From Minisyncoccota bacterium (GTDB taxonomy: Bacteria > Patescibacteriota > Minisyncoccia > Phycocordibacterales > JBAYGS01): 64,000 bases of DNA. Position 1 is the first letter of the stretch, and each line of letters begins with the position of its first letter. A model generated the notes under the pieces. It did no database searches, was not told the origin of the DNA, and saw only the letters and a list, made by a program, of their open reading frames with translations. Where the stretch lies: the NCBI GenBank assembly GCA_041666545.1, contig JBAYGS010000005.1:18842-82841 (forward strand), in the 5' to 3' direction. A program made the translations under genes and the position numbers. Below, in pieces: positions 10,300 to 30,890 of the stretch.

Positions 10300-10340
10300 A
10301 AGTGGATAAAGCCGGTTACGGCTTTATCCACTTTTTATTC
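10300..10340. terminator. Bidirectional rho-independent terminator (perfect 13-bp stem GTGGATAAAGCCG/CGGCTTTATCCAC with T-runs on both sides); it terminates ndk on the minus strand
   Basis: The hairpin is flanked by TTTTTATT on the plus strand and TTTTTGTG on the minus strand. Confidence 0.6.
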
Positions 10341-10378
10341 GTGTCATTCGTCTCCATTCGTGTATTTGTGTCGTGTTC
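10332..10378. repeat. Stop-codon-abutting repeat TTCGTGTCATTCGTCTCcATTCGTGTATTTGTGTCGTGT
   Basis: Four copies, all in one orientation and each ending at the stop codon of a minus-strand gene: 10332-10378 (ndk), 14655-14700, 19294-19335 (rplO) and 23436-23478 (rplN). Confidence 0.6.
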
Positions 10379-14536: not shown

Positions 14537-14652
14537 GTTGTTAAGAACCTTTACGAATAAGGCACACGAATAAAGTACGCGAATAGCGAAACCACGAATA
14601 CGCACACACGAATAAAAAGACAGTTGAGAACCCTTACGAATAGGTCGTGCGG
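14537..14652. repeat. Two inverted copies of the TTATTCGTGTGCCCTATTCGTAAGGGTTCTCAACT family flanking a phased array of five ACGAATA motifs at about 11-nt spacing
   Basis: acgaataaggc acacgaataaag tacgcgaatagcg aaaccacgaatacgc acacacgaataaaaag. Copy 1 spans 14537-14575 and copy 2 spans 14621-14652. Confidence 0.55.
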
Positions 14653-14711
14653 ATATTCGCGTCATTCGTCTCAATTCGTGTATTTGTGTCGTGTGCCGAA
14701 GTATTAAATAC

Positions 14712-15449: not shown

Positions 15450-16220
15450 CTATGAAGTCAAAATCTCCGGGCCGTTTTCGGTAATTACCACCGTGTGTTC
15501 AAAGTGAGCGCTCCGCGAGCCGTCAGCAGTTTTGTAGGTATAGCCGTCACGACCAAGCATCACTTCGGCCGTTCCTTCATTCAACATCGGCTCAATCGCA
15601 ATCACGAGACCGGGACGCATAATTGGACCCTGGGCCTGCATCTTAAAGTTCGGCACATAAGGATCTTCGTGGACCTGATAACCGACACCGTGACCGGAAA
15701 GAGTCTCGACAATGCCAAAATGCTTACCTTTCACAAATTTTTCAATCGCGGTACCAATTTCCCCGACTCGCTTGCCTGATTGCGCCGCCGCGATACCGAT
15801 ACTCAAGGCCTGTTCGGTAGTTTTTAACAACCTCTTAGCCGCCGGATCAACTTCTCCTACCGGCACCGTAATCGCCATATCAGTAAAAAGTCCTTTATGT
15901 TTAAGACCGGCATCCAAGCTCACAATATCCCCATCTTCAAGACTTCGGTCTCTTTCATTTGGAATACCATGAACAACTTCGTCATTTACGGAGACACAAA
16001 GAGAAGCCGGGTAAGGTCGACTCGCGCCCCACGGCTGGTAGTTTAGGAAAGCCGGTGAATCACCGTTTTGAACCATCAGTTTGTGAGCAAAGGTGTTTAA
16101 ATCTTTGACTTTGACTCCTGGAGCTACCTGCTTGGCAGTTTCGTGCAGGATAAAAGCCAGGCGCTTCCCACCCTCCCGCAAAATCGCAATTTCAGCCTCG
16201 GTTTTAATCTTAATTCTCAA
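15450..16220 (-). CDS. map: Methionine aminopeptidase type I
   Basis: 256 aa, canonical in sequence and position (secY-adk-map). Confidence 0.9.
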   Translation of the reverse strand: MRIKIKTEAEIAILREGGKRLAFILHETAKQVAPGVKVKDLNTFAHKLMVQNGDSPAFLNYQPWGASRPYPASLCVSVNDEVVHGIPNERDRSLEDGDIVSLDAGLKHKGLFTDMAITVPVGEVDPAAKRLLKTTEQALSIGIAAAQSGKRVGEIGTAIEKFVKGKHFGIVETLSGHGVGYQVHEDPYVPNFKMQAQGPIMRPGLVIAIEPMLNEGTAEVMLGRDGYTYKTADGSRSAHFEHTVVITENGPEILTS

Positions 16221-16229
16221 ATTTTTGAG

Positions 16230-16820
16230 TTAAACTTTTAAGTCAAGCCTATTTACTATCTCCGCCTGAACATCTGCGATCGTCTGCTCGCCATTAATAT
16301 CCAAAAAATTATAGTCTTGGTGACTTTGATAATATTTAACTACCGGCATCACTTCACTTTCAAACCAATCCAAACGAGCTTTGATATCATCGGCATTATC
16401 ATCGATTCTTTTCCTCGCCAAAAGGCGATCTTCGGCCCACTTTCGAGAAACATTGATATAAATCACATAGGGTTTGACCCTTTTATAGAAACCGAAAATC
16501 GAATGAAGTGCGCCAGCCTCATGAAGTCGGCGCGGGGTGCCATCAATCAGCAAGTGTTCGGTGTTTTTAAATTTGGTCGAAAGAATCTTGGCCCACATAT
16601 AGACCGAGAGAAATTCCGGCTGTAAACCGCCATCGTCATAAATCTGCTTGGAAATTTTTTGAGTCGTGGTATCCCCCTTAATAAATTCCCGAAATTCGGC
16701 CCCACTCTCCAAATGAAAAACTTCCGTTTCCGGATTTTGTTTTTTTAAATATTCGCCAAGCAATTCGACTTGAGTACCTTTGCCACAGCCGGAACGGCCG
16801 ATGAAGATGAAGGAATGCAT
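16230..16820 (-). CDS. adk: Adenylate kinase-like nucleoside monophosphate kinase
   Basis: P-loop GRSGCGKGTQ corresponds to GPPGAGKGTQ. It sits in the secY-adk-map position. Confidence 0.75.
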   Translation of the reverse strand: MHSFIFIGRSGCGKGTQVELLGEYLKKQNPETEVFHLESGAEFREFIKGDTTTQKISKQIYDDGGLQPEFLSVYMWAKILSTKFKNTEHLLIDGTPRRLHEAGALHSIFGFYKRVKPYVIYINVSRKWAEDRLLARKRIDDNADDIKARLDWFESEVMPVVKYYQSHQDYNFLDINGEQTIADVQAEIVNRLDLKV

Positions 16821-17017
16821 GAATTAGTTTGTAGTTAGCAGTGGGTAGTGAGTAGTTAATGGAGACATAATAACAAGAAACTGGAGACTTAAATAGGACT
16901 TGACTTTTTGCCGATATTATGATACACTCAAAGGCAGTAAAGTCCTTTAGCATTTTAGTGCACAGAAACTCAACAACCTACCCGCCAAGCGGGTTACAGA
17001 AATCGGAGGAAATCAAT

Positions 17018-17503
17018 ATGACTAACTATGTGGTAATTACGACGATCGTCGGTAAGATCCTAGCACTTATTGGTATCGGCCTCATTTTTAAGGCGGTAAT
17101 CCGCGAAGAGAACAGCATCAGGATGGCCGGCTTGTTCTTTGCTTCTGGGATCATTTTGCTTCTATGCTCGGCGGCCGGGTCCAAAAACGTTAATCTGGCC
17201 AAAAGTGATCTGCCGGCAGATTACAAACTCGAGGTTAACTCGGAGTACCGGGGAGCTGGCAATGTTCTACAATCCCCGACCAACATTGCCGACGGAATCG
17301 GCCTGGGGGTAGTGATCATCCACAGCTCGGACAGAAAGACCGATCTTGGCCAGACACCTGTCCTCATGAACGCCGGACTCAAGGTTGGCGAGCCGATTGT
17401 AATGAAAGCCGTCGAGGTGGTGGTTAATAACCACCCGATATACTTCATGTTCGTGGCGGAAAAGCTCCCCACCAACAATGTCGCTGCGGCTACGGCCAAG
17501 TGA
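17018..17503 (+). CDS. Hypothetical membrane protein on the opposite strand inside the spc operon
   Basis: ATG at 17018 is preceded by the canonical SD GGAGGA. Two TM helices. The terminator CCGCGCGAGCTTCTCCGGAAGCGAGCGCGGTTTTT lies at about 17510-17548. Confidence 0.5.
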   Translation: MTNYVVITTIVGKILALIGIGLIFKAVIREENSIRMAGLFFASGIILLLCSAAGSKNVNLAKSDLPADYKLEVNSEYRGAGNVLQSPTNIADGIGLGVVIIHSSDRKTDLGQTPVLMNAGLKVGEPIVMKAVEVVVNNHPIYFMFVAEKLPTNNVAAATAK

Positions 17504-17600
17504 CCGATTCACATCCCGCGCGAGCTTCTCCGGAAGCGAGCGCGGTTTTTAATTGACCAAAGGCCCCAAATTGGCTAAATTAGTGTGAGAAAGGGCAAAA

Positions 17601-17825
17601 ATGATTGATTATTTGGGAATTGGCTGCTTCCTTGGTTGCTTGATATTCGTCTACAAACTGACCGAGGCCAAAAACCGAAAATGGGAAAGCTTGTACGCGA
17701 GCGTAGCTGGCCTCATGTTCATCCTAACTCTTTTTTTGGTCTTCGAATCAGTGACCGAGCATCAAAAAAGAGATGAGATGAGAGCCAAGGCCAAAACCGC
17801 AAACCATCTCACAATAAAAAGATAG
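17601..17825 (+). CDS. Hypothetical small two-TM protein
   Basis: 74-aa ORF followed by the terminator GCAGTACCGCCGAAGTCCCAAAGGGACTTCGGCGGTTTTTCTC at about 17826-17868. Confidence 0.4.
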   Translation: MIDYLGIGCFLGCLIFVYKLTEAKNRKWESLYASVAGLMFILTLFLVFESVTEHQKRDEMRAKAKTANHLTIKR

Positions 17826-17878
17826 AGCAGTACCGCCGAAGTCCCAAAGGGACTTCGGCGGTTTTTCTCTATCTCAAA

Positions 17879-17960
17879 CTACCCACTACTCACTACTCAC
17901 TACAAATCCCGATGTCAGAAGTCGGGACCCCGACCTTTGTCTGACAAAGCGTCGGGGCTT
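17879..17960. repeat. Composite repeat: an ACTAC-rich leader repeat (CTACCCACTACTCACTACTCACTAC) plus a GC-rich nested palindrome element (CCCGAtgtcaga-aGTCGGGACCCCGAC-c-tttgtctgacaaaGCGTCGGGG)
   Basis: The GC-palindrome family also occurs at 27033-27090, 52843-52885 (inside recJ) and 55350-55400. Confidence 0.6.
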
Positions 17961-17963
17961 CTT

Positions 17964-19250
17964 CTAGTACTCCCTCATCGAAATCTGGGCATCAATTTTC
18001 TTAATCAAATCAAGAGCCACGGAGACCACAATCAAAAGCGCCGTACCTCCAATAGCCAAAGCGGAAATTCCGGTAAAGGCTCGAACAGCAAGTGGTAAAA
18101 CAGCAATTACACCCAAGAAGACAGCACCGACCAGCGTAATTCTGGTGACAATTTTAGCCAAATATTCGGTCGTCGATTGGCCCGGTCTGACACCTGGAAT
18201 AAAAGCTCCACCCTTCTGGAGATTGGTCGCGATTGATTCCGGCTCAAAAGTGACAGCCGTGTAGAAATAAGTGAAAAGAACAACCAAAATAAAATACAGG
18301 AGAGCGTAAAGCCAAACTTGTGAGAGCAGTTGAACCATAAAAGTCGAAATTGAGACGACAATCGGGTTGCCGGTATTAGCCAAGAAGGTGAAAATCATTT
18401 GCGGAAACAAAAGAATTGAAAGGGCAAAAATAATCGGAATCACACCGCCTTGGTTGATTCGCAAAGGCAAGTAAGTGGAAAGCCCGCCGTACATCTTCAT
18501 CCCCCGTACCCGCTTGGCATAGGTAATCGGCACCGGCCGCTCGGCTTCAGTAATAATCACCACACCCACAATCACCAGGAGTCCGATAATTAAGAATGCC
18601 AAATAGACTGGGATTTGTGAGACTTCAAAAGTAAAAGATAGTTGGGAAATTGCGACCGGTACTCTGGCCACGATACCGGCAAAAATGATGAGAGAAACAC
18701 CATTACCGATACCAAATTCAGTAATCAGCTCACCGAGCCAGGTCAAAAGGATTGAGCCACCGACAATTACCATGATGTTAGTCACGAATCCGAAAGTTTC
18801 AAGACCTGGCACAACCCCTTGTTTCTCCAAGAGAAGAAGAAAACCAAAAGCCTGGATTAAAGCCAGAGGCACTGTAAGTAGCCTTGAGTATTGGGCAAAA
18901 CGCTTGCGGCCAGCCTCCCCTTCTTCATGGTAAATCGCCTTCAGCTTCGGTGACATAATCGTCAAAAGCTGCATGATGATTGAAGCGGTAATGTAAGGGC
19001 CGACACCAAGCATCACAATCGACAAAGTCGATAGACCACCGCCAGAAAATACATCCAAAAGACCCAAAAATTGATTGCCCGAGAAGAACTGTTCGAGCTT
19101 CAAAGCATCAACACCCGGGATTGGGATCACGCTAAATAGTCGGAAAACTGCCAAAGCCACCAAAGTAAAAAGAATCCTTTGGCGCAAAATCTTATCTTGG
19201 AGGACTAATTTGGTTTTGGCTAGAAAGTTGTTCATTTTGGCACTCGACAC
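17964..19250 (-). CDS. secY: Preprotein translocase SecY
   Basis: 428-aa ten-TM protein, canonical in sequence and position. Confidence 0.9.
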   Translation of the reverse strand: MSSAKMNNFLAKTKLVLQDKILRQRILFTLVALAVFRLFSVIPIPGVDALKLEQFFSGNQFLGLLDVFSGGGLSTLSIVMLGVGPYITASIIMQLLTIMSPKLKAIYHEEGEAGRKRFAQYSRLLTVPLALIQAFGFLLLLEKQGVVPGLETFGFVTNIMVIVGGSILLTWLGELITEFGIGNGVSLIIFAGIVARVPVAISQLSFTFEVSQIPVYLAFLIIGLLVIVGVVIITEAERPVPITYAKRVRGMKMYGGLSTYLPLRINQGGVIPIIFALSILLFPQMIFTFLANTGNPIVVSISTFMVQLLSQVWLYALLYFILVVLFTYFYTAVTFEPESIATNLQKGGAFIPGVRPGQSTTEYLAKIVTRITLVGAVFLGVIAVLPLAVRAFTGISALAIGGTALLIVVSVALDLIKKIDAQISMREY

Positions 19251-19333
19251 TAATCCACGAATGAGGACGAATTACACGAATTTGGGTTTGAATTTATTTG
19301 TGTCATTCGCTTAAATTCGTAATTGGTGTCGTG

Positions 19334-19774
19334 TTAGACTATTTTGCCTCCCGCCTTTTCAATCTTGGCCTTGGCACTCCCTGAAAAGGCGCAACCGGAA
19401 ATATTCAAGGCTTTGGTCAATTCGCCATCACCTAGGATTTTGATTTTTGGCGACTTGCCGGATTTCAAAGCAATCAAACCAGAGGCTAAAATTTCTTTCG
19501 GAGTAACTGCGACGCCGGCCGAGAAAAACTTATCAAGTGAGCCGACATTGACCGGCACAAAAGCCACTTGGATACCAACATTGCTGTTTCGGCCACGACC
19601 GCGCAGTTTCGGAATACGCTTAATCATATCGCGAATTTCCGGGCGAACCTTGGCGCCGGCGCGGGCGGTCTGACCCTTACCACCGTGGCCGGAAGTCTTG
19701 CCCCGCTTACCGCCTCGGCCGATTTGCTGCCAATTTTTACGCTTAGTATGTCGTTTTAAATTATGGAGTTGCAT
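19334..19774 (-). CDS. rplO: 50S ribosomal protein L15
   Basis: MQLHNLKRHTKRKNWQQIGRGGKRGKTSGHGGKGQ is the L15 signature. Confidence 0.85.
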   Translation of the reverse strand: MQLHNLKRHTKRKNWQQIGRGGKRGKTSGHGGKGQTARAGAKVRPEIRDMIKRIPKLRGRGRNSNVGIQVAFVPVNVGSLDKFFSAGVAVTPKEILASGLIALKSGKSPKIKILGDGELTKALNISGCAFSGSAKAKIEKAGGKIV

Positions 19775-19779
19775 AAAAT

Positions 19780-20428
19780 TTATTTACTGACTTTAGCACT
19801 TTCGAACTTCTTCAAAATCATTTTGCGTCGGCTCAATTCCGACAAAGCTTTCATGGCGGCGCGAGCATTATTCAGTCGATTTTTGCTACCAGAGAGCAAC
19901 TTGGCGTTAACATCTTTCAAACCGCAAAGCTCGATAACATTTCGAATAGAAGTACCGGCAACCATTCCCTTACCTCGAGCCGGCATAATCATCACTCGCG
20001 AGCTTGCATACTTAGCGGCAACTTCAAAAGGAATCGAGGAGCTCTTTGTCATCGGGACAGTAATTAAATTTTTCTTGGCTTCACGATTAGCCTTTTCAAT
20101 CGCCAAGGCAGTATCGCCGCCTTTACCCAATCCGACACCAACCTGACCCTTGCGATTACCGATAACCATGGCAACACTGAAAGCAAAGCGTCTACCACCG
20201 GCCACGGTTCGGGAAACGCGTCTAATATCAATGATTTTCTGATCAAATTCCGGCTTTACTCTCTCCGGCCTGGTACCACCACGGCGCGGACCACCTCGTC
20301 TTTCCGGACGATTACCAAAACCGCCCCTCACCGGTCGAGCATTTCTTGAATCGGCAGCCGGTAGAGCTCCGGGAGTAGTCGGGGCAACTTTCGCCACATC
20401 TGCATTTTGTTTGGTATCGTCTTTCATA
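19780..20428 (-). CDS. rpsE: 30S ribosomal protein S5 (the likely start is the Met at 20428; the ORF track extends it upstream through the intergenic repeat)
   Basis: ...IIDIRRVSRTVAGGRRFAFSVAMVIGNRKGQVGVGLGKG... is canonical S5. No L30 gene lies between S5 and L15. Confidence 0.85.
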
Positions 20429-20430
20429 AT

Positions 20431-20470
20431 GTTTTTATTCGTGTGCCCTATTTGCAAGGGTTCTTAACTT
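20431..20470. repeat. Intergenic repeat TTATTCGTGTGCCCTATTtGcAAGGGTTCTtAACT between rplR and rpsE
   Basis: Six members of this family: 14537, 14621, 20431, 21443, 22241 (inverted) and 25956. Confidence 0.65.
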
Positions 20471-20491
20471 AAAATTTCGATTACAATCTCA

Positions 20492-20839
20492 TTAAAACAC
20501 TAAACCGCCTTCTCTGGCACTATCGGCCAAGACTTTGATTTTGCCGGTGTAAATAAAGCCTCCTCGGTCAAAGACGACAGTCTTAATCTTCTTGGCCATG
20601 GCCAATTTGGCCAACTCTAAACCAACAGCCTTAGCTTTTTCCAAAACGGTTTTACCCGGAGCTTTCATTGAGGAAGCGGCTACCAAAGTCTTACCGGTAG
20701 CATCATCAATCAATTGGGCGTAGATATATTTATTGGAACGAAAAACCGAAAAGCGCGGTCTGGCTTCGGTGCCAAAAATCTTGGCCCTAATTTTCTTATG
20801 GCGTCGATCTCTTTTTAGTTTTGATGTTGGCTTTTTCAT
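20492..20839 (-). CDS. rplR: 50S ribosomal protein L18
   Basis: Position in the spc operon and sequence. Confidence 0.85.
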
Positions 20840-20896
20840 TGAATTTTATCTTTGGCTTTCATACCTTATACCATATACCTAATACTATATACCCCT

Positions 20897-21430
20897 CTAG
20901 GCTGCTTTCTTGCCTTCCTTCCTACGAATGACTTCCTTCTCATATCTCATACCCTTACCCTTATAAGGCTCGGCTTTCTTCAAATCGCGGACTTTGGCGG
21001 CAAACTGACCGACCAATTCCTTATCAATACCTGAAACAGTGATCAAGTTCTTCTCGGCAGTCACTTTTAGACCCTCCGGAATGTCCATCTCCACCGGGTG
21101 AGAAAAACCAAGACTAAAAACCATTTTCTTGCCTTTGACTTCAGATTTGAAACCGATACCTTCCAAAATCAACTTTTTCTCAAAAGCCTTGTTGACGCCG
21201 TTAATCATATTGTTGACATGCGAAGAAGCGGTTCCCCACATCGCACTCACCTCAACGCCGGTGCGCTTTGGAGTAAGGATAACCTGATTATTATCGATAG
21301 CAATGCCGATAATCGGTCGGAAGTTTCTTGAGAGCTCGCCCAAAGGACCCTTGACCTTCACAACATTGTTCAAAACCGACACTGTCGTGCCGTTTGGGAT
21401 TGCAATTGGTTTTTTGCCGATTCTGGACAT
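20897..21430 (-). CDS. rplF: 50S ribosomal protein L6
   Basis: MSRIGKKPIAIPNGTTVSV... is canonical L6. Confidence 0.9.
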   Translation of the reverse strand: MSRIGKKPIAIPNGTTVSVLNNVVKVKGPLGELSRNFRPIIGIAIDNNQVILTPKRTGVEVSAMWGTASSHVNNMINGVNKAFEKKLILEGIGFKSEVKGKKMVFSLGFSHPVEMDIPEGLKVTAEKNLITVSGIDKELVGQFAAKVRDLKKAEPYKGKGMRYEKEVIRRKEGKKAA

Positions 21431-21442
21431 GATGATAATTAA

Positions 21443-21480
21443 TTTATTCGTGTGCCCTATTCGTAAGGGTTCTCAACTAT
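21443..21480. repeat. Intergenic repeat TTATTCGTGTGCCCTATTCGTAAGGGTTCTCAACT between rpsH and rplF
   Basis: Consensus copy of the six-member family. It abuts the rpsH stop and lies 13 nt from the rplF start. Confidence 0.65.
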
Positions 21481-21869
21481 TACCAGATTTTAAATAAAAC
21501 TTCGCCACCGACTTTTTCTTTCTTGGCCTCCTTATCGGTCAAAATTCCTTTTGGGGTCGAGAGCACGATCAAGCCTAAACCGCTCTTGAAAGATCGGATT
21601 TCTTTGGCGCCCTGGTAAACGCGCTTGGACGGTTTGGAGACACGGGCCACATCGTTGATTCGAGGTGTCTTACCTTCGGCATATTCGACTTCAGCCTCCA
21701 AAATCTTGTGGTTATTCTTGCGCTTCTTGGCAATTGATTTGAGAAAACCGTTCTTAACCAAAATATCTGCAATTGACTCCTTAATCGCCGAATGAGGTAC
21801 CACAACACTTCCCCGACCTGCGAGGCCGGCATTCTTAACTTTGATTAGAAAATCAGCGATTGGATCCAT
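21480..21869 (-). CDS. rpsH: 30S ribosomal protein S8
   Basis: MDPIADFLIKVKNAG... is canonical S8. Confidence 0.9.
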   Translation of the reverse strand: MDPIADFLIKVKNAGLAGRGSVVVPHSAIKESIADILVKNGFLKSIAKKRKNNHKILEAEVEYAEGKTPRINDVARVSKPSKRVYQGAKEIRSFKSGLGLIVLSTPKGILTDKEAKKEKVGGEVLFKIW

Positions 21870-21987
21870 AAAATAATTTAAAATTGAAAGGTCAAAATGG
21901 AAAATTGCAATTTAAAATCTAAAATTAGATTCTGAAAATTATTCAATTTTGCATTGTCATTTTTCATTTTGAGATTTACATTTTCCA
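21870..21987. repeat. AT-rich roughly 118-bp repeat between rpsZ and rpsH that ends with the exact 30-mer AATTTTTCATTTTGAGATTTACATTTTCCA
   Basis: The 30-mer is identical at 29349-29378. Related copies lie at 39925-39990, 61842-61897 and in the 5' leader of the four-helix-bundle gene (62264-62290). Confidence 0.6.
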
Positions 21988-22173
21988 CTACCATGATGAC
22001 TTCTTGATTCCCGGAATCATGCCTTCGTTGGCATACTCGCGGAAGCAAATACGGCAAAGGTCGAAGTCTCGCATATAGCCGCGCTTGCGACCACAGCGGA
22101 AACAACGGTTAGTAGCCCGAGTGGAAAATTTCGGTTTCTTTAACGATCTTGCTACTACTGATGTTTTTGCCAT
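21988..22173 (-). CDS. rpsZ: 30S ribosomal protein S14, type Z (zinc-binding)
   Basis: 61 aa with [20 protein letters not shown]. Confidence 0.9.
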
Positions 22174-22240
22174 AATAAATTAAAAAAGCTTGCAAAAGCT
22201 TGTCCGCGTATACTAGCAAACCAAGAAGAAGAATGCAAGG

Positions 22241-22280
22241 CAGGTTGAGAACCCTTACGAATAGGGCACACGAATAGGCC
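22241..22280. repeat. Inverted-orientation copy of the TTATTCGTGTGCCCTATTCGTAAGGGTTCTCAAC family, followed by a GGTATA-rich segment (22292-22325)
   Basis: GGTTGAGAACCCTTACGAATAGGGCACACGAATAGG. Confidence 0.6.
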
Positions 22281-22531
22281 AGCCGGCAAAAGTATAGGTA
22301 TAAGGTATAAGTATAGGTATGGGAAATGGGTCCAAAAGTCAAAAAGCACGGGAGAAGACAAGATAAAAGGCGCGCAACTGCGTTGCGCGCCTTGACTCTC
22401 ACCCTATATTCCTAGAAAGCTCATCAGCAACCAAGGCCTCGATAAATCGGCACAAGCCAAGCAGACAAAAACGGCCTACTGGCCGTTTTTGTCTGTCCTT
22501 ATTCCTAAATCATGAATCTTTATTCCTAATT

Positions 22532-23062
22532 CTATTTCTTGAGAGGAAAACCTAAGTATTCTAGAAAAGCTCTGGTCAATTTTTTGTCGCCGGAAGTGGT
22601 GACGATTGTGATAGCGAGACCGAAAACATCTTTCAACTCTTCATCGGAAGTTTCAGGGAAAATTGTGTGTTCTTTGATGCCGATAGTGTAATTGCCCATA
22701 TCATCAATGGCGGTGGCATTAAGTCCACGAAAGTCTTTGGTTCGAGGCAGGGCCACATTTAAAAGTTTGTCCAAAAAGCCGTACATCCGAGCACCCCGAA
22801 GCGTGATCTGATAACCAACCAAATCGCCTTCTCGAGACTTGAAGGTGGCGATTGATTTCTTGGCAGAACGAGGAGCGGCCTTCTGGCCAGTAATTTTACC
22901 CAAACGATCAGCAATCAATTCCAATTTTTTCTTATCTTTAAGAGAGCCGACGCCGGTCGAAATCACCACCTTGGAGAGGCGTGGCGCTTGCATCGGATTT
23001 TTGAAGCCAAACTGACCTTTCAGCGATTCAAAAGCCTTATTCTGTTTTTCTTTGGTATTCAT
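22532..23062 (-). CDS. rplE: 50S ribosomal protein L5
   Basis: Sequence and position. Confidence 0.9.
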   Translation of the reverse strand: MNTKEKQNKAFESLKGQFGFKNPMQAPRLSKVVISTGVGSLKDKKKLELIADRLGKITGQKAAPRSAKKSIATFKSREGDLVGYQITLRGARMYGFLDKLLNVALPRTKDFRGLNATAIDDMGNYTIGIKEHTIFPETSDEELKDVFGLAITIVTTSGDKKLTRAFLEYLGFPLKK

Positions 23063-23076
23063 AATTAGTTAGTTTA

Positions 23077-23108
23077 GAAGTTGAAAAGTTTGAAAGTTTG
23101 GAAGTCTC
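23077..23108. repeat. AGTTTAGAAGTTGAAAAGTTTGAAAGTTTGGAAGTCTC repeat immediately upstream of the rplE start
   Basis: TTGGAAGTTTGGAAG family (see 1860-1960, 27973-28054, 52884-52907, 55401-55420). Confidence 0.55.
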
Positions 23109-23121
23109 AAGATTACCCAAG

Positions 23122-23421
23122 CTAGATGGCTGAACCGGTTTTTTTACTGACACGAATCAGTTTGCCGTCAATCAACTTCTTACCGGCTCGAACTGGCTTG
23201 CCACCCTCCACCAACTGAACATTGGAAACATGGATCGGCAAGGTCACATCAATAATCTGACCTTTCTCATTGCTCTTCCTCGGTCTCTGGTGTCGCTTTT
23301 TGACATTGACACCCTCAACCAGAATACGGTTTTCGGCAGGTAGCGCCTCAAGCACCTTACCGGTTTTACCCCGGTCTTTGCCAGCAATCACCATTACATT
23401 GTCATTTTTCTTGATTCTCAT
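23122..23421 (-). CDS. rplX: 50S ribosomal protein L24
   Basis: MRIKKNDNVMVIAGKDRGKTGKV... has the KOW motif. Confidence 0.9.
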   Translation of the reverse strand: MRIKKNDNVMVIAGKDRGKTGKVLEALPAENRILVEGVNVKKRHQRPRKSNEKGQIIDVTLPIHVSNVQLVEGGKPVRAGKKLIDGKLIRVSKKTGSAI

Positions 23422-23474
23422 ATATGTATTCTTAGATTCGTGTCATTCGTCTTAATTAGTGAATTGGTGTCGTG

Positions 23475-23846
23475 TTATACGATTTCAGCCGCCAAAGAAG
23501 CGATTTTCTGGTAACCCTTTTCAGCCAATTCTCGAGGAATCGGTCCAAAAACACGGCCGGCAATCGGATCCATCTTGCCTTTTTCCAAAATCACCACAGC
23601 ATTCTCATCGAAACGGACATAGGAACCGTCCAGGCGTCTTAGGGCCTTGGTCTGACGAACCACTACCGCCTGCAAGACATCCTTTTTCTTTACCGCCTTT
23701 CTTGGTTCGGCTTTCTGAACTGACAAAACCACCTGGTCACCGATTGAAGCGTAGCGCTTTTTGGAGGCACCGAGCACCTTGAAAATGCGTCCGATTTTAG
23801 CCCCGGAGTTGTCGACGATTTTCACAATGGTGCGTGGTTGAATCAT
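23475..23846 (-). CDS. rplN: 50S ribosomal protein L14
   Basis: MIQPRTIVKIVDNSGAK... is canonical L14. Confidence 0.9.
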   Translation of the reverse strand: MIQPRTIVKIVDNSGAKIGRIFKVLGASKKRYASIGDQVVLSVQKAEPRKAVKKKDVLQAVVVRQTKALRRLDGSYVRFDENAVVILEKGKMDPIAGRVFGPIPRELAEKGYQKIASLAAEIV

Positions 23847-23908
23847 ATTGGTTAGTTAGTAGTGAGTAGTTGGTAGTTTGTAGTTTGTAGTTGAAGAAAA
23901 GAAAATAC

Positions 23909-24172
23909 CTAGACAATTTTAAAAGATTTGCGTTTGGAAATCGGGCGGCACTCTTCGATGGTCACCTTATCGCCGATTTTCTTGGTATTACCCGGATCGT
24001 GGGCCAAGTACTTCTTAGAAATCTTCATGTACTTGCCGTATTTCGGGTGCTTTTCATAGCGATTGGTCACAACCGAAACAGTGTCTTTCATCTTGTCTGA
24101 AGAGACCACACCTTGAATAACCCGAGGGCGACGGTTAGGAGTTTCTGTTGGTTTGTTGGTTTTTGGCTTCAT
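23909..24172 (-). CDS. rpsQ: 30S ribosomal protein S17
   Basis: Sequence and position. Confidence 0.85.
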   Translation of the reverse strand: MKPKTNKPTETPNRRPRVIQGVVSSDKMKDTVSVVTNRYEKHPKYGKYMKISKKYLAHDPGNTKKIGDKVTIEECRPISKRKSFKIV

Positions 24173-24213
24173 AATAAATGAAAGTGTATCTTAGCTTAAA
24201 GCAGTTAAACTGT

Positions 24214-24405
24214 CTATTTGCTGTTCTTTCTTTGATTCTGCTCGGTCATAATTTTGGCAATCTCTCGCTTCAGGTTTCTCCCCTCTCGCATGTTGCGATT
24301 CTTGCTACCGGCAATACCGAAACGGAAAGCTCGAACAGCTTCGCGCTTCTCTAAAAGCATCGCAACAAGCTCGGCATCAGTTTTGTTTTTAAATTCGTTG
24401 GACAT
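24214..24405 (-). CDS. rpmC: 50S ribosomal protein L29
   Basis: Sequence and position. Confidence 0.8.
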   Translation of the reverse strand: MSNEFKNKTDAELVAMLLEKREAVRAFRFGIAGSKNRNMREGRNLKREIAKIMTEQNQRKNSK

Positions 24406-24416
24406 TTTATTTCAAA

Positions 24417-24839
24417 TTAGACTCGGCTGACAAACTTAGTTTTGACCGGCAACTTGGAACCCGCTTTGCGGAGAGCTTCGGCCGCCTCAACCTCCGGAAT
24501 ACCGTCGACTTCAAAAATCACTCGGCCTGGGCGCACCTCAACACAAAAACCCTGCGGTTCGCCTTTACCTTTACCCATTTTCACTTCGGCCGGCTTTTGA
24601 GTATATGGTCGGTCCGGGAAAACTCGAACCCACATCTTGCCGGATTTGGTGAGTGAGCGAGAAATAACTTTTCGAGCCGATTCCAACTGATTTGACCTGA
24701 TACGAGCGTGGCCCAAAGTTTTCAAACCAAAAGAACCGAAAGACAATTTGAGTCCTCGAGTTTCCGGCCTTAGCCAGTAGTCGGCATTCTTACGAGCAGT
24801 ATGCCATTTTCTAAATTTTACTTTCTTTGGGACAAACAT
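24417..24839 (-). CDS. rplP: 50S ribosomal protein L16
   Basis: MFVPKKVKFRKWH... is canonical L16. Confidence 0.9.
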   Translation of the reverse strand: MFVPKKVKFRKWHTARKNADYWLRPETRGLKLSFGSFGLKTLGHARIRSNQLESARKVISRSLTKSGKMWVRVFPDRPYTQKPAEVKMGKGKGEPQGFCVEVRPGRVIFEVDGIPEVEAAEALRKAGSKLPVKTKFVSRV

Positions 24840-24860
24840 GTTAGTAAATTAAAATGAAAA

Positions 24861-25550
24861 TTATTTCTTGTCGGCAAAAATCTCACCTCGGTAAATCCAA
24901 ACTTTAATGCCGATATCACCGTAGTCCATATGAGCTTTCTCTCTGGCAAAATCGATATCCGCACGCAAAGTCTGAAGTGGGACTTGGCCTTTGCGGAGCT
25001 CTTCTGAGCGGGCCATTTCGGCACCACCCAAACGGCCACCCAAGTAAACCTTAACGCCCTTAACATCTCGGTTAGCCATAACTTTCTCAATCGCCTGCTT
25101 CATCACGCGACGGAAAGGCATTCTTTTTTCAATGCTTTCGGCAATCATTTGAGAGACAATCGCGGCATTTGATTCCGGTGAGCGGATTTCTTCGATATCA
25201 AGCTTGAGCTCTTGATGAGTAATCGGCTTGCCGGTTTTAAGAACCAACTTGGCCAAATCTTCCTTCAACTTGACGGCGCCTTCCCCGCTTCGGCCGATAA
25301 TCATACCCGGACGAGAAGTTTTGATGATAATTCGCAAAGTTTTGGTGCCTCGCTCGATTTCTACCGAGCTAACAAAAAATCCGCGTAGCCGCTTGGCCAA
25401 ATATTCGCGGATCTTGATATCTTCCTTCAGAGACTTCTTGTACATATCACCCACGCCAAACCAGCGTGACTTCCAATCACGAATGATACCTAGACGATGT
25501 GAATATGGGTGAACGGTGTGGGACATAATAGTTAAATAATCAATAATCAA
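24861..25550 (-). CDS. rpsC: 30S ribosomal protein S3
   Basis: Has the KH domain signature. Confidence 0.9.
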   Translation of the reverse strand: MIIDYLTIMSHTVHPYSHRLGIIRDWKSRWFGVGDMYKKSLKEDIKIREYLAKRLRGFFVSSVEIERGTKTLRIIIKTSRPGMIIGRSGEGAVKLKEDLAKLVLKTGKPITHQELKLDIEEIRSPESNAAIVSQMIAESIEKRMPFRRVMKQAIEKVMANRDVKGVKVYLGGRLGGAEMARSEELRKGQVPLQTLRADIDFAREKAHMDYGDIGIKVWIYRGEIFADKK

Positions 25551-25565
25551 GAAACAATCACCAAA

Positions 25566-25955
25566 CTAACTGTTTCCTTTGCTCTTAATTTGTTTCTTGG
25601 TTTTTGGTGTTTGGTTATTCTCCAGTTCGCTTAGAACTAGGGTAATATGGCTAGTTCGCTTATTGATACCGGAAGCGCTACCTCGAGCTCGCGGCATGAT
25701 TCGCTTTAAAATCACCCCAGCATCGACAGTGACACCTTTAACCTTAAGATTCTCGGCGGACAGGTTTTGACTATTCTTGGCATTGGCTACCGCTGACATT
25801 AGCAATTTTTTAATCGGGGCGCTAGCTCGCTTGGCCAAAAAATCCAATTCAGCAATCGCCAAATTAACCGGCTTGCCTTTGATCAAATCGGCAACAAGTC
25901 TAACCTTACGTGGTGATTGTCGGTAATTATTCAGTTTTGCGGTAATTGTTGTCAT
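25566..25955 (-). CDS. rplV: 50S ribosomal protein L22
   Basis: Sequence and position. Confidence 0.85.
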   Translation of the reverse strand: MTTITAKLNNYRQSPRKVRLVADLIKGKPVNLAIAELDFLAKRASAPIKKLLMSAVANAKNSQNLSAENLKVKGVTVDAGVILKRIMPRARGSASGINKRTSHITLVLSELENNQTPKTKKQIKSKGNS

Positions 25956-25992
25956 TGTTTTATTCGCATGCCCTATTCGTAAGGGTTCTTAA
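25956..25992. repeat. Intergenic repeat TTATTCGcaTGCCCTATTCGTAAGGGTTCTtAACT that exactly fills the gap between the rpsS stop and the rplV start codon
   Basis: The start codon of rplV (25953-25955) and the stop of rpsS (25993-25995) directly flank the element. Confidence 0.65.
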
Positions 25993-26334
25993 CTATTTCT
26001 TAGCTTCGGTTGAAGCTTTAGCAGCCTGCGCAGAGGCAATCTCGGCTTGCTTCTTGGCAGCCTCGAGTTCCTTCTGCATCTTACCGCCGTGCTTAACGAA
26101 CTTGCGGGTTAAAGAAAATTCGCCCAATCGATGGCCAACCATGTCTTCAGAAATCAAAACTTCAATAAAATCCTTGCCATTATGAACGGCAAACTTAAAA
26201 CCAACCATTTCTGGAGAAATCTGGCAGGCCCGAGACCAAGTCTTAATTGGTTCAGACTTTTCAGGACGCTTGCCTGCTATCTTCTTTAGCAGCCTTTCGT
26301 CGACATATGGTCCTTTCTTAAGCGATCGTGTCAT
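25993..26334 (-). CDS. rpsS: 30S ribosomal protein S19 with a Lys/Ala-rich C-terminal extension
   Basis: [19 protein letters not shown]... is canonical S19. Confidence 0.9.
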
Positions 26335-26516
26335 AGGTTAGTTGGTAGTGAGTAGTTTGTAGTTATCAGAGACAACACCAAAACTACGCCCTTTATGTAA
26401 AAAGCTCCAAACGAGCTAGACGGATAGCTTAGCATAAGTCATTTTAAAGAGCAACTCTGGGCTGGTATAGGTATAAAGTATAAGTATAGGCTCAAAATAA
26501 GGGAGTTTTCACGCAC

Positions 26517-26550
26517 TTGACAATCTGACATATTGTATGATAAAATACTA
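26517..26550 (+). promoter_or_regulatory. Sigma70-like promoter (TTGACA ... TATGATAAAAT) for the inserted gene 26597..26968
   Basis: A TTGACA hexamer at 26517 is followed by an extended TG-N-TATGAT/ATAAAAT -10 region. A strong SD, AGGAGA, lies 4 nt before the ATG. Confidence 0.45.
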
Positions 26551-26596
26551 ATAGAGTTGGAATTTGGCAACAAACAAAAAACGAATAGGAGACAAC

Positions 26597-26968
26597 ATGA
26601 ACAATGTACACATCGCCCCCGGAAGCGTCGGCGCATCGGTTGGTTTTCGAGCCGGCCTGGCAACAGAAATGGCCGCGAAGATCCTGCAGCAGGACGCGCG
26701 AGACAAGCCTATCAAGGAATACCTTTTGAATACCGCCCCACCTTCAGTTCGCGAATGGATTCACGAAAATGGGGTGATTGATGATCTTTTCCATTATGGT
26801 TTCTCCAGCCGTCAGATGCGATTTGGTGAACCTTTGAACGACTCGGCGCATGTCTTGGGGGTCTGCGCCCAACTGGCAAAGGCCTGGAAAGGCCTGGTCC
26901 GGGTCACGGTGAGCAGCAACCCTGAACCACACCGTGTGGAAATCTTCTTCAGCGCCACACGACTTTAG
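26597..26968 (+). CDS. Hypothetical protein (123 aa) encoded on the opposite strand between rpsS and rplB; GC-rich relative to its surroundings
   Basis: ATG at 26597 has a canonical SD, unlike the neighbouring r-protein genes. It has its own promoter and the terminator GGCCCGCGACAGCAGTCGCGGGCCTTTTTATTT at about 26985-27020. Confidence 0.5.
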   Translation: MNNVHIAPGSVGASVGFRAGLATEMAAKILQQDARDKPIKEYLLNTAPPSVREWIHENGVIDDLFHYGFSSRQMRFGEPLNDSAHVLGVCAQLAKAWKGLVRVTVSSNPEPHRVEIFFSATRL

Positions 26969-27032
26969 GCAGGTGGCGTAGCAAACGGACAGGCCCGCGA
27001 CAGCAGTCGCGGGCCTTTTTATTTCTTCTAAG

Positions 27033-27090
27033 TAAGCCCCGACGCCTTGGTCGGGACCCCGGCCTCGTCCGACGAGCGTCGGGGCTAATG
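27033..27090. repeat. GC-rich nested-palindrome repeat AGCCCCGACGCcttGGTCGGGACCCCGgCCtcgtccgacgaGCGTCGGGGCT
   Basis: Same family as 17905-17960, 52843-52885 and 55350-55400. Confidence 0.6.
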
Positions 27091-27114
27091 AAGCTATCCG
27101 GCTAATCAAGCTAA

Positions 27115-27972: not shown

Positions 27973-28054
27973 GGTTAGTTTTAAGTTTAAAAGTTTGGAA
28001 GTTTGGAAGTCTTAACTCTTAACTTCTGAACTTCAGAACTAAAGCGAAGCGTTA
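27973..28054. repeat. TTAGTTTTAAGTTTAAAAGTTTGGAAGTTTGGAAGTCTTAACTCTTAACTTCTGAACTTCAGAACTAAAGCGAAGCG repeat filling the rplW-rplB gap
   Basis: It abuts the rplB start codon and shares GTCTTAACT...AACTnAAGCGnAGCG with the ssrA upstream copy. Confidence 0.55.
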
Positions 28055-29256: not shown

Positions 29257-29261
29257 GATAA

Positions 29262-29386
29262 TAAATCAAAATTAAAATCTCAAAATTTAAAATGACAATG
29301 TAAAAGTCAAAATTGGATTCGGAAAAGTTTTAAATTTTAAATTATAATTTTTCATTTTGAGATTTACATTTTCCATTTAGTTGGAA
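29262..29386. repeat. AT-rich roughly 125-bp repeat between rplC and rplD, homologous to 21870-21987 and ending in the same 30-mer
   Basis: AATTTTTCATTTTGAGATTTACATTTTCCA at 29349-29378. The minus-sense strand contains a TTATAAT box. Confidence 0.6.
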
Positions 29387-30761: not shown

Positions 30762-30890
30762 ATTTTCCTTTCTCTTTAAGTGAATCCTCTCTCGTCATAC
30801 TATTCATCCATCTTATACTTGTCAAATATAAACCCTGTGGTAGTCTAAAAAAGGACATCCAGTTCTAAAACATCAAATGAAAGGCGAAAT

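Follow-up and report, generated by a model that had tools for sequence, protein, structure and literature searches.

A modular hairpin repeat between ribosomal-protein cistrons of a Paceibacterota (Parcubacteria) bacterium

How have copies of a 35-nt and a 45-nt repeat come to occupy the gaps between cistrons of an spc/S10 ribosomal-protein operon, and do they act there as mobile DNA, as signals in the messenger, or as both? An earlier note on this locus had counted six 35-mers and four 45-mers and took them to be probably mobile or recombining at the level of DNA, not signals in the mRNA. We analysed the 64,000-nt stretch that holds them (the window), which belongs to a Paceibacterota (Parcubacteria, CPR) bacterium and is identical in three independent assemblies (ENA, JGI and Logan), together with 43 element loci from outside it, namely four named Parcubacteria MAGs and 39 metagenome contigs; these loci were fished with the 35-mer pattern, and the counts of apex types and gene contexts drawn from them are accordingly a biased census. 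Flank and polarity statistics cover 22 hairpin elements and gene-context statistics 23 downstream genes outside the window, while gaps were compared with those of three relatives (L047, L049 and L050) and of three more distant genomes (L051-L053). Pfam assignments on an identical contig (L044) and on S14 support the gene names around the elements as originally given. Low-complexity intergenic sequence of several kinds is abundant in the window, and other, unrelated repeat families occupy most of its ribosomal-protein gaps.

Anatomy and spread of the repeat modules

The covariance model R1 recovers six 35-mers, and none further, in the 64 kb (E <= 2e-5); a pattern search allowing up to three mismatches returns four copies where none is expected by chance, and the + strand carries two diverged copies, at about 14539-14573 and 14622-14655. 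For the 45-mer, a search with one mismatch yields two copies (10338-10376 and 14656-14694; no matches expected in shuffled sequence), and two diverged ones lie at 23435-23475 and 19293-19333, the full inventory being four sense copies, one inverted arm and one degenerate arm (Table 1). The six and four copies counted previously are thus real, but the inverted arm at 19244-19281 and the degenerate arm at about 14575-14615 had been missed, the 45-mer had been quoted with 39 letters, and most elements fall outside the span 20431-25992 to which they had been assigned, all of them lying within 10.3-26 kb. Not one but three of the six 35-mers (22243, 14539 and 14622) run opposite to the flanking genes.

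Table 1. Repeat elements in the window, with positions, strand, and location or supporting evidence
Element	Position	Strand	Location and evidence
35-mer apex module, solo, sense	25960..25994	-	rpsS-rplV gap; R1 65.3 bits
35-mer apex module, solo, sense	21444..21478	-	rpsH-rplF gap; R1 67.6 bits
35-mer apex module, solo, sense	20435..20469	-	rplR-rpsE gap; R1 58.8 bits
35-mer apex module, solo, inverted relative to the operon	22243..22277	+	355-nt rplE-rpsZ gap; pattern match and R1
35-mer apex module, CCTT/AAGG stem variant, inverted	14539..14573	+	R1 57.5 bits
Composite hairpin element	14575..14694	-	R1 46.2 bits and arm matches
Apex-less hairpin element	19242..19333	-	rplO-secY; arm matches and folding
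Solo 45-mer (left arm)	23435..23475	-	bulk of the rplN-rplX spacer, from the rplN TAA onward
Solo 45-mer (left arm)	10336..10376	-	directly 3' of the ndk TGA stop codon

Most of the 39 metagenome loci present the two repeats as parts of one structure, in which a 45-mer arm, a 35-mer apex and an inverted 45-mer arm follow each other, and arm pairs elsewhere also carry other apexes or none. Both arms are made of imperfect 8-10-nt sub-repeats based on CGAAT, with C(A/G)CGACAC-CAAT-CACGAAT-...-GACACGAATA on the left and, on the right, an imperfect inverse of it that closes with GTGTCGAG; an apex made of the 35-mer, GTTRAGAACCCTTACRAATAGGGCACACGAAT, is optional, and this module is also found alone. 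Stop codons interrupt every frame of the 35-mer, G is scarce in the 45-mer arm, and Rfam has no family that matches the elements. The 39 metagenome contigs and at least four further named MAGs, from different Parcubacteria groups, carry the same modules at unrelated sites, and the 35-mer and 45-mer are modules of one non-coding, dispersed intergenic repeat family of Paceibacterota.

Composite hairpins of 100-135 nt are predicted to fold with free energies of -30 to -49 kcal/mol (z -3.9 to -9.3), and a compensated change distinguishes L008 (TTTATGCGAATG/CATTCGCATAAA) from L010 (TTGATGCGAATG/CATTCGCATCAA). The window's own composite, built of a sense 45-mer arm (14654-14694), an inverted 35-mer apex (14622-14655) and the degenerate right arm, reaches about -48 kcal/mol on both strands (z -3.4 to -4.8), and the 91-nt rplO-secY hairpin (left arm 19293-19333, a loop of ~12 nt, right arm 19244-19281) folds at -26.1 kcal/mol (z -4.5). 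Solo modules are predicted to be unstructured, as exemplified by the arm at 23435-23475, with a minimum free energy of 0 and 200 of 200 shuffles folding equally well or better. RNAalifold did not recover the arms from the alignment, and the 4-bp apex hairpin shows minimal covariation (three double-change cells). In 15 composites the strand antisense to the gene folds better than the mRNA strand, with the reverse in six, a difference that could mean that structure in the messenger is selected against rather than used.

Insertion marks and turnover among relatives

In the sampled relatives (L6 74-89% identical), the corresponding gaps contain none of the three intercistronic 35-mers, and R1 finds six hits in the window versus none in L047-L053. 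The S19-L22 (rpsS-rplV) gap measures 37 nt in the window versus 3 nt in L050; the S8-L6 (rpsH-rplF) gap measures 49 nt versus 8 nt in L047, whose L6 is 89% identical, and holds an unrelated 113 nt in L050; the L18-S5 (rplR-rpsE) 35-mer is absent from that gap in L047, L049 and L050; and the x81-DUF8128 gap spans 211 nt in the window versus 53 nt in L050.

The flanks bear marks of their own. The left end directly follows a stop codon in 20 of the 22 hairpin elements; the right flank has TA at position 0 or 1 in 13 (p = 7e-5; absent in the other nine) and begins with a leftover stop triplet in nine (p = 0.002), which would amount to a statistical rather than a clean target duplication. The 35-mer itself shows neither terminal inverted repeats nor a consistent flank duplication, and Pfam detects no transposase, and no parent IS with matching ends, among the ORFs next to the window elements. 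Within the window, the rplO-secY hairpin starts directly 3' of the rplO TAA and ends 7 nt upstream of the secY ATG, and at ndk an intrinsic terminator (about 10296-10335) comes after the left arm, a layout of stop, left arm and terminator that recurs in L028 and L050. The 45-mer had been said always to end at a stop codon, which is true of three of the four sense copies, the composite's arm lying 17 nt after the stop; likewise, the rpsS-rplV 35-mer, described as exactly bounded by stop and start, is nearly so, since it overlaps the rpsS TAG by 2 nt, supplying its G, and ends 4 nt short of the rplV ATG.

Because copies are present or absent among relatives and because of the stop and TA flanks, these comparisons of sequence strongly indicate that the elements arrive as DNA insertions. 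The DNA-level mobility put forward in the earlier note is thereby supported by the absences in relatives, the copies at unrelated sites and the TA or leftover-stop flanks, but not by the argument originally made from an inverted copy.

Polarity, selection and competing explanations

The hairpins share one polarity in 21 of 22 cases (p = 5e-6), namely stop codon, C(A/G)CGACAC...GTGTCGAG, 3-12 nt (median 7 nt) and ATG. The rplO-secY hairpin retains its locus-specific spacers, its position and the 98-nt gap length in the window, L049 and L050, and is 94% and 88% identical in the latter two, versus 52% and 47% at secY third codon positions; the rplN-rplX arm is 87% identical in L047 and not kept in L050; and a 35-mer in the leader of an antitoxin-like gene keeps 26-30 of 32 nt versus about 40-59% at third positions. 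These rates suggest that some copies are under purifying selection. Among the 23 downstream genes elsewhere, 11 encode translation machinery or GroES (L11, S12, L24, L5 twice, L18, L10, S7, EF-G, EF-P and GroES; p about 4e-6, assuming 10% of genes in the translation class), and others include MurG, FolD, RpiB, pilus and antitoxin-like genes. Fixed polarity, two orthologous copies that outlast synonymous sites and translation-gene enrichment speak against setting the mRNA aside, as had been done when the elements were called mobile rather than a messenger signal. Nor does the inverted copy on which that view relied, at 22243, occupy a spacer between two cistrons; it follows two terminator-like hairpins and precedes a putative rpsZ promoter by 5 nt. 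Purely selfish DNA would not predict enrichment in essential ribosomal-protein operons together with strong orthologous conservation.

We favour, with slightly better than even confidence, the reading that this is a new modular hairpin repeat of the BOX/Correia/MITE kind, which inserts at stop codons, is co-transcribed and in some of its copies has come under selection. In packed operons the elements sit at the TA of a stop codon, with a stop directly at their left end and TA or a leftover TAA at the right, and they would thereafter be transcribed as part of the operon mRNA. Only expression-compatible insertions would survive, which would give the fixed polarity. The composite hairpin may fold the insert of ~100 nt away and bring the upstream stop and the downstream ATG to within ~7 nt of each other at the stem base, a proximity that would preserve Shine-Dalgarno-independent coupling or re-initiation, and solo modules would amount to mostly unstructured added spacer. 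In mRNAs of the translation machinery, selected copies probably tune coupling, processing or stability, and a role at the RNA level, in cistron coupling, processing or factor binding, is what the sequence features would suggest. None of the 26 genes of the cluster has a Shine-Dalgarno match of at least 5 nt, whatever fills the gap; that the 35-mer must serve as the translation-initiation region, as the earlier note held, is therefore only trivially true of its place between cistrons, and ribosome recruitment by the 35-mer finds no support.

A different account, to which we give appreciable but clearly minor weight, makes the family a cis-regulatory RNA signal, its mobility being secondary or only apparent. 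A conserved trans-acting protein or RNA would recognise ACGAAU boxes, one in the 7-nt hairpin loop of the 35-mer and a second, single-stranded, ~13 nt downstream, the arms being box arrays, and would co-ordinate the translation or stability of ribosomal-protein, elongation-factor and chaperone mRNAs. Across unrelated sites and genomes the 35-mer is near-invariant in primary sequence, far beyond the needs of a 4-bp stem, and this account would also draw on the slow change of orthologous copies, the downstream gene classes and the polarity. The closing CGAAT box falls 0-15 nt before the ATG in eight solo sense copies (15 nt in the rpsH-rplF gap, 9 nt before the rpsE ATG at 20427), the right arm as close as noted above, and single CACNCGAATAA boxes precede the L18, S5 and L15 genes in L050. 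However, the three ribosomal-protein copies missing in relatives are dispensable there, inverted copies make up half of the window's 35-mers and about a quarter elsewhere, copies also stand in 3' UTRs ahead of terminators (L001), most ribosomal-protein gaps of the window hold unrelated families, and the account has no candidate trans-acting factor.

We regard as improbable a DNA-level site, in which CGAAT boxes about one helical turn apart and the CCCT-N7-AGGG palindrome of the 35-mer would bind a transcription factor or nucleoid protein or form a promoter element. The 8-10-bp spacing of the boxes in the arms fits, as does the placement of two inverted 35-mers (22243 and 14539), which stop exactly 5 nt short of the -35 hexamers of a putative rpsZ promoter (TTGCAT-N17-TAGTAT) and of the DUF8128 ATPase promoter (TTGAAT-N16-TATAAT, then 6 nt to the ATG); in L002, L024 and L033, a conserved promoter-like block immediately precedes the 35-mer. 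Yet L050 conserves both the putative rpsZ block and the ATPase promoter without the element, inverted solo copies in L015, L029 and L041 have no promoter at that spacing, and a sigma-70 scan flags no element as a promoter, the rpsZ block itself being too weak for listing. Moreover, such a site would need neither fixed polarity relative to transcription nor placement between stop and start, and the CACGAAT heptamer is not dispersed in the window, 12 of its 17 occurrences lying inside elements.

Very unlikely, in turn, is an ancient ribosomal-protein autoregulatory leader or attenuator specific to spc/S10 operons. It would fit the shared position of the rplO-secY hairpin and the rplN-rplX arm common to the window and L047, but the 35-mers are absent from orthologous gaps of the sampled relatives and hence no ancient operon leader, the operons of L051-L053 are tightly packed (gaps mostly of a few to ~40 nt, or overlaps) and hold no elements, the same modules elsewhere precede the MurG, FolD, RpiB, pilus and antitoxin-like genes named above, and Rfam, whether at its gathering thresholds or with E allowed up to 10, gives no ribosomal-protein leader family for this locus. 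Confinement to the operon and positional conservation in distant relatives, which the earlier note had named as pointing to such a leader, are not seen for the 35-mer; of the elements, only the rplO-secY hairpin keeps its position, and that within a narrow clade. Finally, chance similarity of low-complexity spacers, plentiful as these are, or an assembly artefact is scarcely credible given the zero matches expected in shuffled sequence, the three identical assemblies and the near-identical 32-mers in the 43 other loci.

Comparison with known systems

One close likeness is to BOX elements of Streptococcus pneumoniae, which are organised as boxA-boxB(n)-boxC with pairing end modules and a central module that is absent, single or repeated, and which are intergenic, co-transcribed and thought to affect neighbouring expression in an orientation-dependent manner (PMC3049150). 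Both are modular non-coding composites with paired end modules and a central module that folds largely alone, the present apex being one that can be absent, replaced or flipped, and the present family too would be co-transcribed from intergenic sites with a putatively orientation-dependent effect on its neighbours. It differs in its unrelated sequence and host phylum, its arms of 8-10-nt CGAAT sub-repeats, the occurrence of modules alone as complete intercistronic spacers, the left end that abuts a stop codon with fixed polarity, its concentration in ribosomal-protein operons, and an apex near sequence-invariant across several candidate groups of Parcubacteria.

Correia elements of Neisseria (CREE/NEMIS) and other MITEs share with it a hairpin of ~100-150 bp, inverted-repeat ends, a characteristic core, target-sequence duplication and presence or absence between strains, and co-transcribed Correia elements give rise to mRNA hairpins open to cleavage or protection by RNase III (PMC2649163). 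In the present family, by contrast, the TA duplication is statistical only (13 of 22), neither an IHF site nor a promoter created at the element ends was found, there is no known parent IS, and the polarity rule and stop-codon abutment are not described in the cited Correia literature (PMC2649163). REP/BIME elements resemble it in their ~35-40-nt modules, their intercistronic and 3'-UTR sites and their mosaics of alternating orientation near stop codons; however, the 35-mer stem has only 4 bp, neither module ends in the GTAG or CGTC tetranucleotide that at one end defines the two REP superfamilies (PMC3733652), and the scanned ORFs next to window elements include no Y1-transposase (RAYT) gene. 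Enterobacterial ERIC/IRU elements are imperfect palindromes of ~127 bp with an orientation-dependent effect on the transcript (summarised in PMC3049150). They too lie inside operons, and are unrelated in sequence and host.

Intercistronic RNase III hairpins punctuate the early mRNA of phage T7, and ribosomes shunt across a hairpin in the CaMV 35S leader. With these the present elements would share a long imperfect hairpin whose stem base is flanked, at a distance of a few nucleotides, by a stop codon on the upstream side and a start codon on the downstream side, a likeness that we take as an analogy of mechanism only.

Modular architecture and predicted fold of the ACGAAT family

In the mRNA sense, with the ribosomal protein genes lying on the minus strand, the 35-mer reads AGTTGAGAACCCTTACGAATAGGGCACACGAATAA and the 45-mer reads ACACGACACAAATACACGAATTGAGACGAATGACACGAATA. 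A pattern search of the window at no more than three mismatches recovers four copies of the 35-mer, with none expected in shuffled sequence; a repeat finder adds two further, diverged copies near 14.5 kb, and a covariance model built on 23 copies returns exactly these six and no others in the 64 kb. Three copies stand in the sense orientation in the cistron-to-cistron gaps rpsS-rplV, rpsH-rplF and rplR-rpsE. The other three are inverted. One stands 5 nt ahead of a putative promoter in the rplE-rpsZ gap (355 nt), where two terminator-like hairpins precede it; the second ends 5 nt short of the -35 box in the promoter of the DUF8128 ATPase gene; and the third forms the apex of a composite element (arm, apex and inverted arm) just upstream of the second. 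Four sense copies of the 45-mer are joined by inverted arms listed in the table, and all ACGAAT-family elements of the window fall within 10.3 to 26 kb; genes were identified by our own scans and by the Pfam calls for L044, a contig of 83.7 kb with identical sequence. The CACGAAT heptamer occurs 17 times in the window, with 12 occurrences inside elements and only five elsewhere versus 8.4 expected, a concentration on which we rejected a DNA uptake sequence (DUS/USS), a type of short motif that is over-represented across the whole genome, coding DNA included. As read from the sequence, each of the three frames of the 35-mer contains a stop codon, and a 29-codon plus-strand ORF downstream of the inverted copy at 22243 was discarded as it is not conserved in L050, a relative with the same operon.

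The 35-mer core was found once each in four different Parcubacteria MAGs in a scan of one genome per species, and a metagenome scan yielded 39 further 35-mer loci. At most of these loci a 45-mer-like arm lies to the left of the 35-mer and the inverse of such an arm to its right, and an arm HMM recovers additional arm pairs with a variant apex, unrelated short loops or no apex at all. The arms are runs of CGAAT boxes at 8-10-nt spacing in which C(A/G)CGACAC... pairs with ...GTGTCGAG, giving elements of 80-164 nt. Composite RNAs are predicted to form long imperfect hairpins (-31 to -49 kcal/mol, z -3.9 to -9.3); the solo 35-mers of the window are predicted to be essentially unstructured except for a 4-bp CCCU/AGGG stem (z near 0), and for the solo 45-mer that precedes rplX the predicted MFE is 0. 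Apex orientation matches arm orientation in about 18 of 23 composites, so that the apex behaves as a separate module. Together, these comparisons demonstrate the modularity of the family and its predicted hairpin potential.

RNAalifold failed to recover the arms from 17 composites, whose sub-repeats fall out of register when aligned, and arm covariation therefore rests on individual folds and one worked example; the apex hairpin is too invariant in sequence to inform on covariation. Across the composites of the compared loci L004-L050 and that at 19242-19333 in the window, the gene-antisense strand is predicted to be the more stable, with more G.U pairs, in 15 cases versus six for the mRNA strand, and the sense RNA carries a recurrent C.A mismatch (CCAAT versus ATTAG) and an A.A mismatch (CACGACAC versus GTGTCGAG). 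The better antisense fold could reflect inheritance from a master copy, selection against excess mRNA structure or a single-strand DNA intermediate.

Turnover, polarity and flanks of the elements

The same operon was compared gap by gap in three relatives, with L6 identities of 89% (L047), 85% (L049) and 74% (L050). The S19-L22 gap, which spans 37 nt with the 35-mer in the window, is 3 nt in L050; the S8-L6 gap (49 nt, 35-mer) is 8 nt in L047 and an unrelated 113 nt in L050; the 35-mer of the L18-S5 gap is absent in L047, L049 and L050; and the gap upstream of the DUF8128 ATPase gene (x81-DUF8128) measures 211 nt in the window and 53 nt in L050, with the promoter conserved. The L6-L18 gap carries a GGTATA-type repeat in the window (57 nt), is similar in L047, and holds a 95-nt arm-pair element in L049 and a single CACGCGAATTCGTG mini-palindrome in L050. 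In the more distant relatives L051-L053, gaps are mostly a few to about 40 nt, or genes overlap, and no elements are found. Presence/absence among relatives is thereby demonstrated, and since the window copies are missing from the relatives' gaps and L051-L053 carry no elements, the ancient regulatory leader specific to this operon, which the earlier note had entertained as the alternative to a dispersed repeat, is ruled out for the 35-mer. Three assemblies of the same sequence are identical and thus uninformative on within-species polymorphism.

Polarity was determined for 22 independent arm-pair elements oriented by their flanking genes, and in 21 of them the order is stop codon, C(A/G)CGACAC...GTGTCGAG, spacer and ATG (one-sided p = 5e-6). 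The left end abuts the stop codon, at its TA, within 0-1 nt in 20 of the 22, so that both a fixed polarity and stop-codon abutment are demonstrated for the family. On the right flank, TA stands at position 0 or 1 in 13 of 22 elements (background 0.10 per position; p = 7e-5) and a stop triplet, mostly TAA, opens the flank in nine (p = 0.002), the median distance from the right end to the ATG being 7 nt. The typical right junction, ...GTGTCGAGA followed directly by TAATTTATG, resembles an earlier 'TAA-few nt-ATG' junction that an insert has pushed aside. Judged from sequence, the flanks would fit insertion at the stop-codon TA with TA(A) duplication, as in TA-targeting MITEs, the duplication being a statistical signal across the 22 elements, short of a clean demonstration.

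Several other repeats and inserts occupy the window. Immediately ahead of the start codons of rplT, ndk, adk, rplN and rpsS stands a G-free leader of tandem heptamers, the 'ACTAC type' (..AACTACAAACTACTCACTAC..), whose position but not length is kept in L047 and L050. AT-rich 'AAAATG/CATTTT' palindromes make up a family that fills the gaps rpsZ-rpsH and rplC-rplD (130 nt in the window as in L050) and the region upstream of rpsL; like the ACGAAT elements it is laid out as a hairpin running from stop to start, in an unrelated sequence. Nearly every ribosomal protein intercistronic gap in the window's lineage carries some repeat family, where most corresponding gaps in L051-L053 have only those few to about 40 nt. 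The spc operon is broken after rplE by two terminator-like hairpins, downstream of which, ahead of rpsZ, stand a conserved block TTGCAT-N17-TAGTAT and an AAGCTT hairpin; this layout recurs in L050, and the L047 gap has an extra 229-aa gene. The 780-nt rplB-rpsS gap, 356 nt with different content in L050, contains an opposite-strand 134-aa ORF without Pfam match that has a strong TTGACA-18-TAAAAT promoter and a terminator. An insert of about 2.4 kb separates rpsJ from rplC; it includes two ORFs that have no Pfam match and, on the opposite strand, a RelB/YafQ toxin-antitoxin pair. Further away, the two arms of a 64-nt inverted repeat (91% complementary) lie 2.4 kb apart, one in a recJ-like gene and the other in intergenic DNA, and a region without a clean long ORF call contains direct repeats of 147-150 nt in tandem (75-77% identical).

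Coordinates of repeats, signals and inserts in the window
Feature	Positions	Remark
Inverted 45-mer arm	19244-19281	
Degenerate inverted 45-mer arm	near 14575-14615	
TATAAT-like boxes near starts	14500-14534; others e.g. 51721-53535, 56526-57302, 59541-60050	
ACTAC-type leader	5901-5939, 10984-11020, 16819-16856, 17862-17906, 23847-23900, 26333-26364	always sense
AAAATG/CATTTT family	21872-21990, 29260-29377, 39928-39978, 61840-61891, 62210-62288	
GGTATA-type intergenic repeat	9932-9972, 11732-11772, 20860-20893, 22290-22325, 37839-37875, 54367-54393	
CCAAACTT-type intergenic repeat	1902-1944, 23070-23110, 27975-28040	
GATTCAGGAAT-type intergenic repeat	6276-6318, 22495-22537, 39424-39507	
rpsE, first ATG/GTG/TTG ORF call	19780-20457	start inside repeat, TTG 20457; pipeline on identical contig, ATG 20427
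secY, first ATG/GTG/TTG ORF call	17964-19250	start inside repeat, GTG 19250; pipeline on identical contig, ATG 19235
Break of the spc operon after rplE	22176-22531	hairpins 22461-22496, 22367-22393
rplB-rpsS gap	26335-27114	134-aa ORF 26564-26968 (+)
rpsJ-rplC insert	30309-32340	RelB/YafQ pair 31786-32340
64-nt inverted repeat	52834-52897, 55338-55401	
Tandem direct repeats	3835-4384	

Constraint, gene context and absence of Shine-Dalgarno matches

Constraint is demonstrated at two orthologous sites. The hairpin between rplO and secY fills a gap of 98 nt in the window and in both L049 and L050, with 94% (L049) and 88% (L050) identity, and the third codon positions of secY are 52% and 47% identical to the window in the same two relatives; the few changes either affect the loop or internal-loop spacers or produce G.U pairs, and the retention of locus-specific spacers argues against homogenisation by other copies. 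Similarly, 26-30 of 32 nt of a 35-mer in the leader of an antitoxin-like gene are kept across three genomes in which the gene's third positions are about 40-59% identical.

A bias towards translation operons is likewise demonstrated, with translation or chaperone genes accounting for 11 of the 23 genes that immediately follow sense-oriented elements in other genomes (L11, S12, L24, L5 twice, L18, L10, S7, EF-G, EF-P and GroES; ten assigned by Pfam and EF-G read from sequence). The enrichment has p of about 4e-6 if the class is assumed to make up 10% of genes, and the loci were fished with the 35-mer pattern, which is not a census and should not favour any gene class. This bias, together with the near-invariant apex sequence, favours the main rival to our reading of the elements, namely an ACGAAU-box signal recognised by a factor, which is weakened by the inverted copies and because relatives do without the copies seen in the window. 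In a further reading that takes in both the composite hairpin and module turnover, the ACGAAU-box modules would be a shared cis-signal of a translation-machinery regulon in a Paceibacterota clade, with the ribosome itself or a conserved factor as the reader, a proposal we consider unlikely. Under that proposal the composite hairpin would serve as a 'structural splice' that restores the stop-to-start distance to about 7 nt, and Shine-Dalgarno-independent re-initiation could continue across the folded insert; its logic would have a counterpart in the eukaryotic 5'TOP motif and, if it is true, module insertion, exaptation and turnover would be how these reduced genomes tune ribosomal protein stoichiometry.

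Shine-Dalgarno sites pair over at least 4-5 nt with the 3' end of 16S rRNA, 5-10 nt ahead of the start codon. Over the stretch rplC to ndk, no match of at least 5 nt to AGAAAGGAGGTGATC, the canonical anti-Shine-Dalgarno complement, stands at positions -20 to -3 of any of the 26 genes, those behind elements included; the host's own 16S 3' end may carry an altered anti-Shine-Dalgarno sequence, and a search of all gathered loci for a 16S rRNA with which to test this found none. In other parts of the window a TATAAT or TATAAT-like box precedes the start codon of many genes by 5-8 nt, which suggests that leaderless mRNAs may be common in this host, and a few genes have a GAAAGG motif. Neither module is flagged by a sigma-70 consensus scan (-35/-10 at 16-18-nt spacing), and an ECF-type or sigma-70 promoter inside the 35-mer was rejected on that result and on its poor spacing and hexamers. 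Because the 26 genes lack a Shine-Dalgarno match, the proposition that the 35-mer must serve as the initiation region between cistrons holds for any sequence that fills a gap, and as such it stands, without singling out the 35-mer.

In our preferred model of insertion and folding, the arm element would insert at stop-codon TAs and be co-transcribed with the operon, and the composite stem would fold the insert away, bringing the stop codon again to about 7 nt from the next start. The restored distance would preserve Shine-Dalgarno-independent coupling, with solo modules serving as probable unstructured spacers and those copies that are kept possibly modulating coupling, processing or stability.

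Bacteria of the CPR have tiny genomes, most of their lineages are without cultured models, and their translation initiation is poorly understood. The present cluster combines 26 genes lacking a Shine-Dalgarno match with inter-cistron spacers occupied by several repeat families, and the ACGAAT family, with its defined modular anatomy, fixed polarity, plausible stop-codon insertion mechanism and signs of selection, offers a concrete handle on cistron coupling in such a setting. It also raises the question of how selfish DNA could spread into the most essential operons that a minimal genome has and leave its host alive. Covariance and HMM models of the family would improve intergenic annotation in Paceibacterota, could mark lineages and would flag mis-placed start codons such as those of rpsE and secY.

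Relation to known repeat classes

Covariance-model searches with Rfam returned only tmRNA at gathering thresholds over the whole window, with no ribosomal protein leader, and only tmRNA and two irrelevant weak matches up to E = 10 over 10200-26500; an autoregulatory leader of an Rfam family was rejected on this ground and because 35-mers are missing from orthologous gaps. Integron attC sites, imperfect palindromes with RYYYAAC...GTTRRRY cores that follow each ORF of a cassette array beside an integrase, were dismissed as the termini here are CACGACAC/GTGTCGAG, an integron cassette array as the flanking genes are essential ribosomal protein genes in conserved order, and TIGR-Tas arrays as the elements are dispersed singly and do not form tandem guide arrays. 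Viral contigs gave no match to the 35-mer, and their four matches to the arm pattern, in coding DNA of different G+C content, were attributed to chance.

Like MITEs, the arm element is short and non-coding, ends in inverted repeats and is predicted to fold by base pairing (z about -4 to -9), and the family occurs in multiple dispersed copies with presence/absence between related genomes; the 35-mer has no inverted ends, so that the MITE structure holds for the arm element only. Pfam searches of the unassigned ORFs near elements found no transposase domain and no Y1-transposase (RAYT). REP sequences are by definition imperfect palindromes of 20-40 bp, one end of which carries the tetranucleotide GTAG or CGTC (PMC3733652), and the 35-mer differs from REP/BIME in having neither tetranucleotide on either strand, CGTC being only internal in some arms.

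The elements are not described in the literature that we searched on Parcubacteria/CPR repeats, MITEs, leaderless and Shine-Dalgarno usage and RNA motifs, nor is the family in Rfam. Pneumococcal BOX elements have a modular A-B-C design (PMC3049150), and the likeness is one of modular architecture only, the family being set apart by its host (Paceibacterota, not Streptococcus). Correia elements (CREE) of Neisseria consist of inverted repeats and a characteristic core; their long forms contain an IHF site, and they show target duplication and mRNA hairpins that are RNase III-sensitive (PMC2649163). The present host is not Neisseria, and by eye the 35-mer has no IHF consensus. The closest analogues are BOX for the modular design and Correia for the inverted ends and core, and also for the target duplication and mRNA hairpins, of which the family shows a statistical signal and a predicted fold, respectively.
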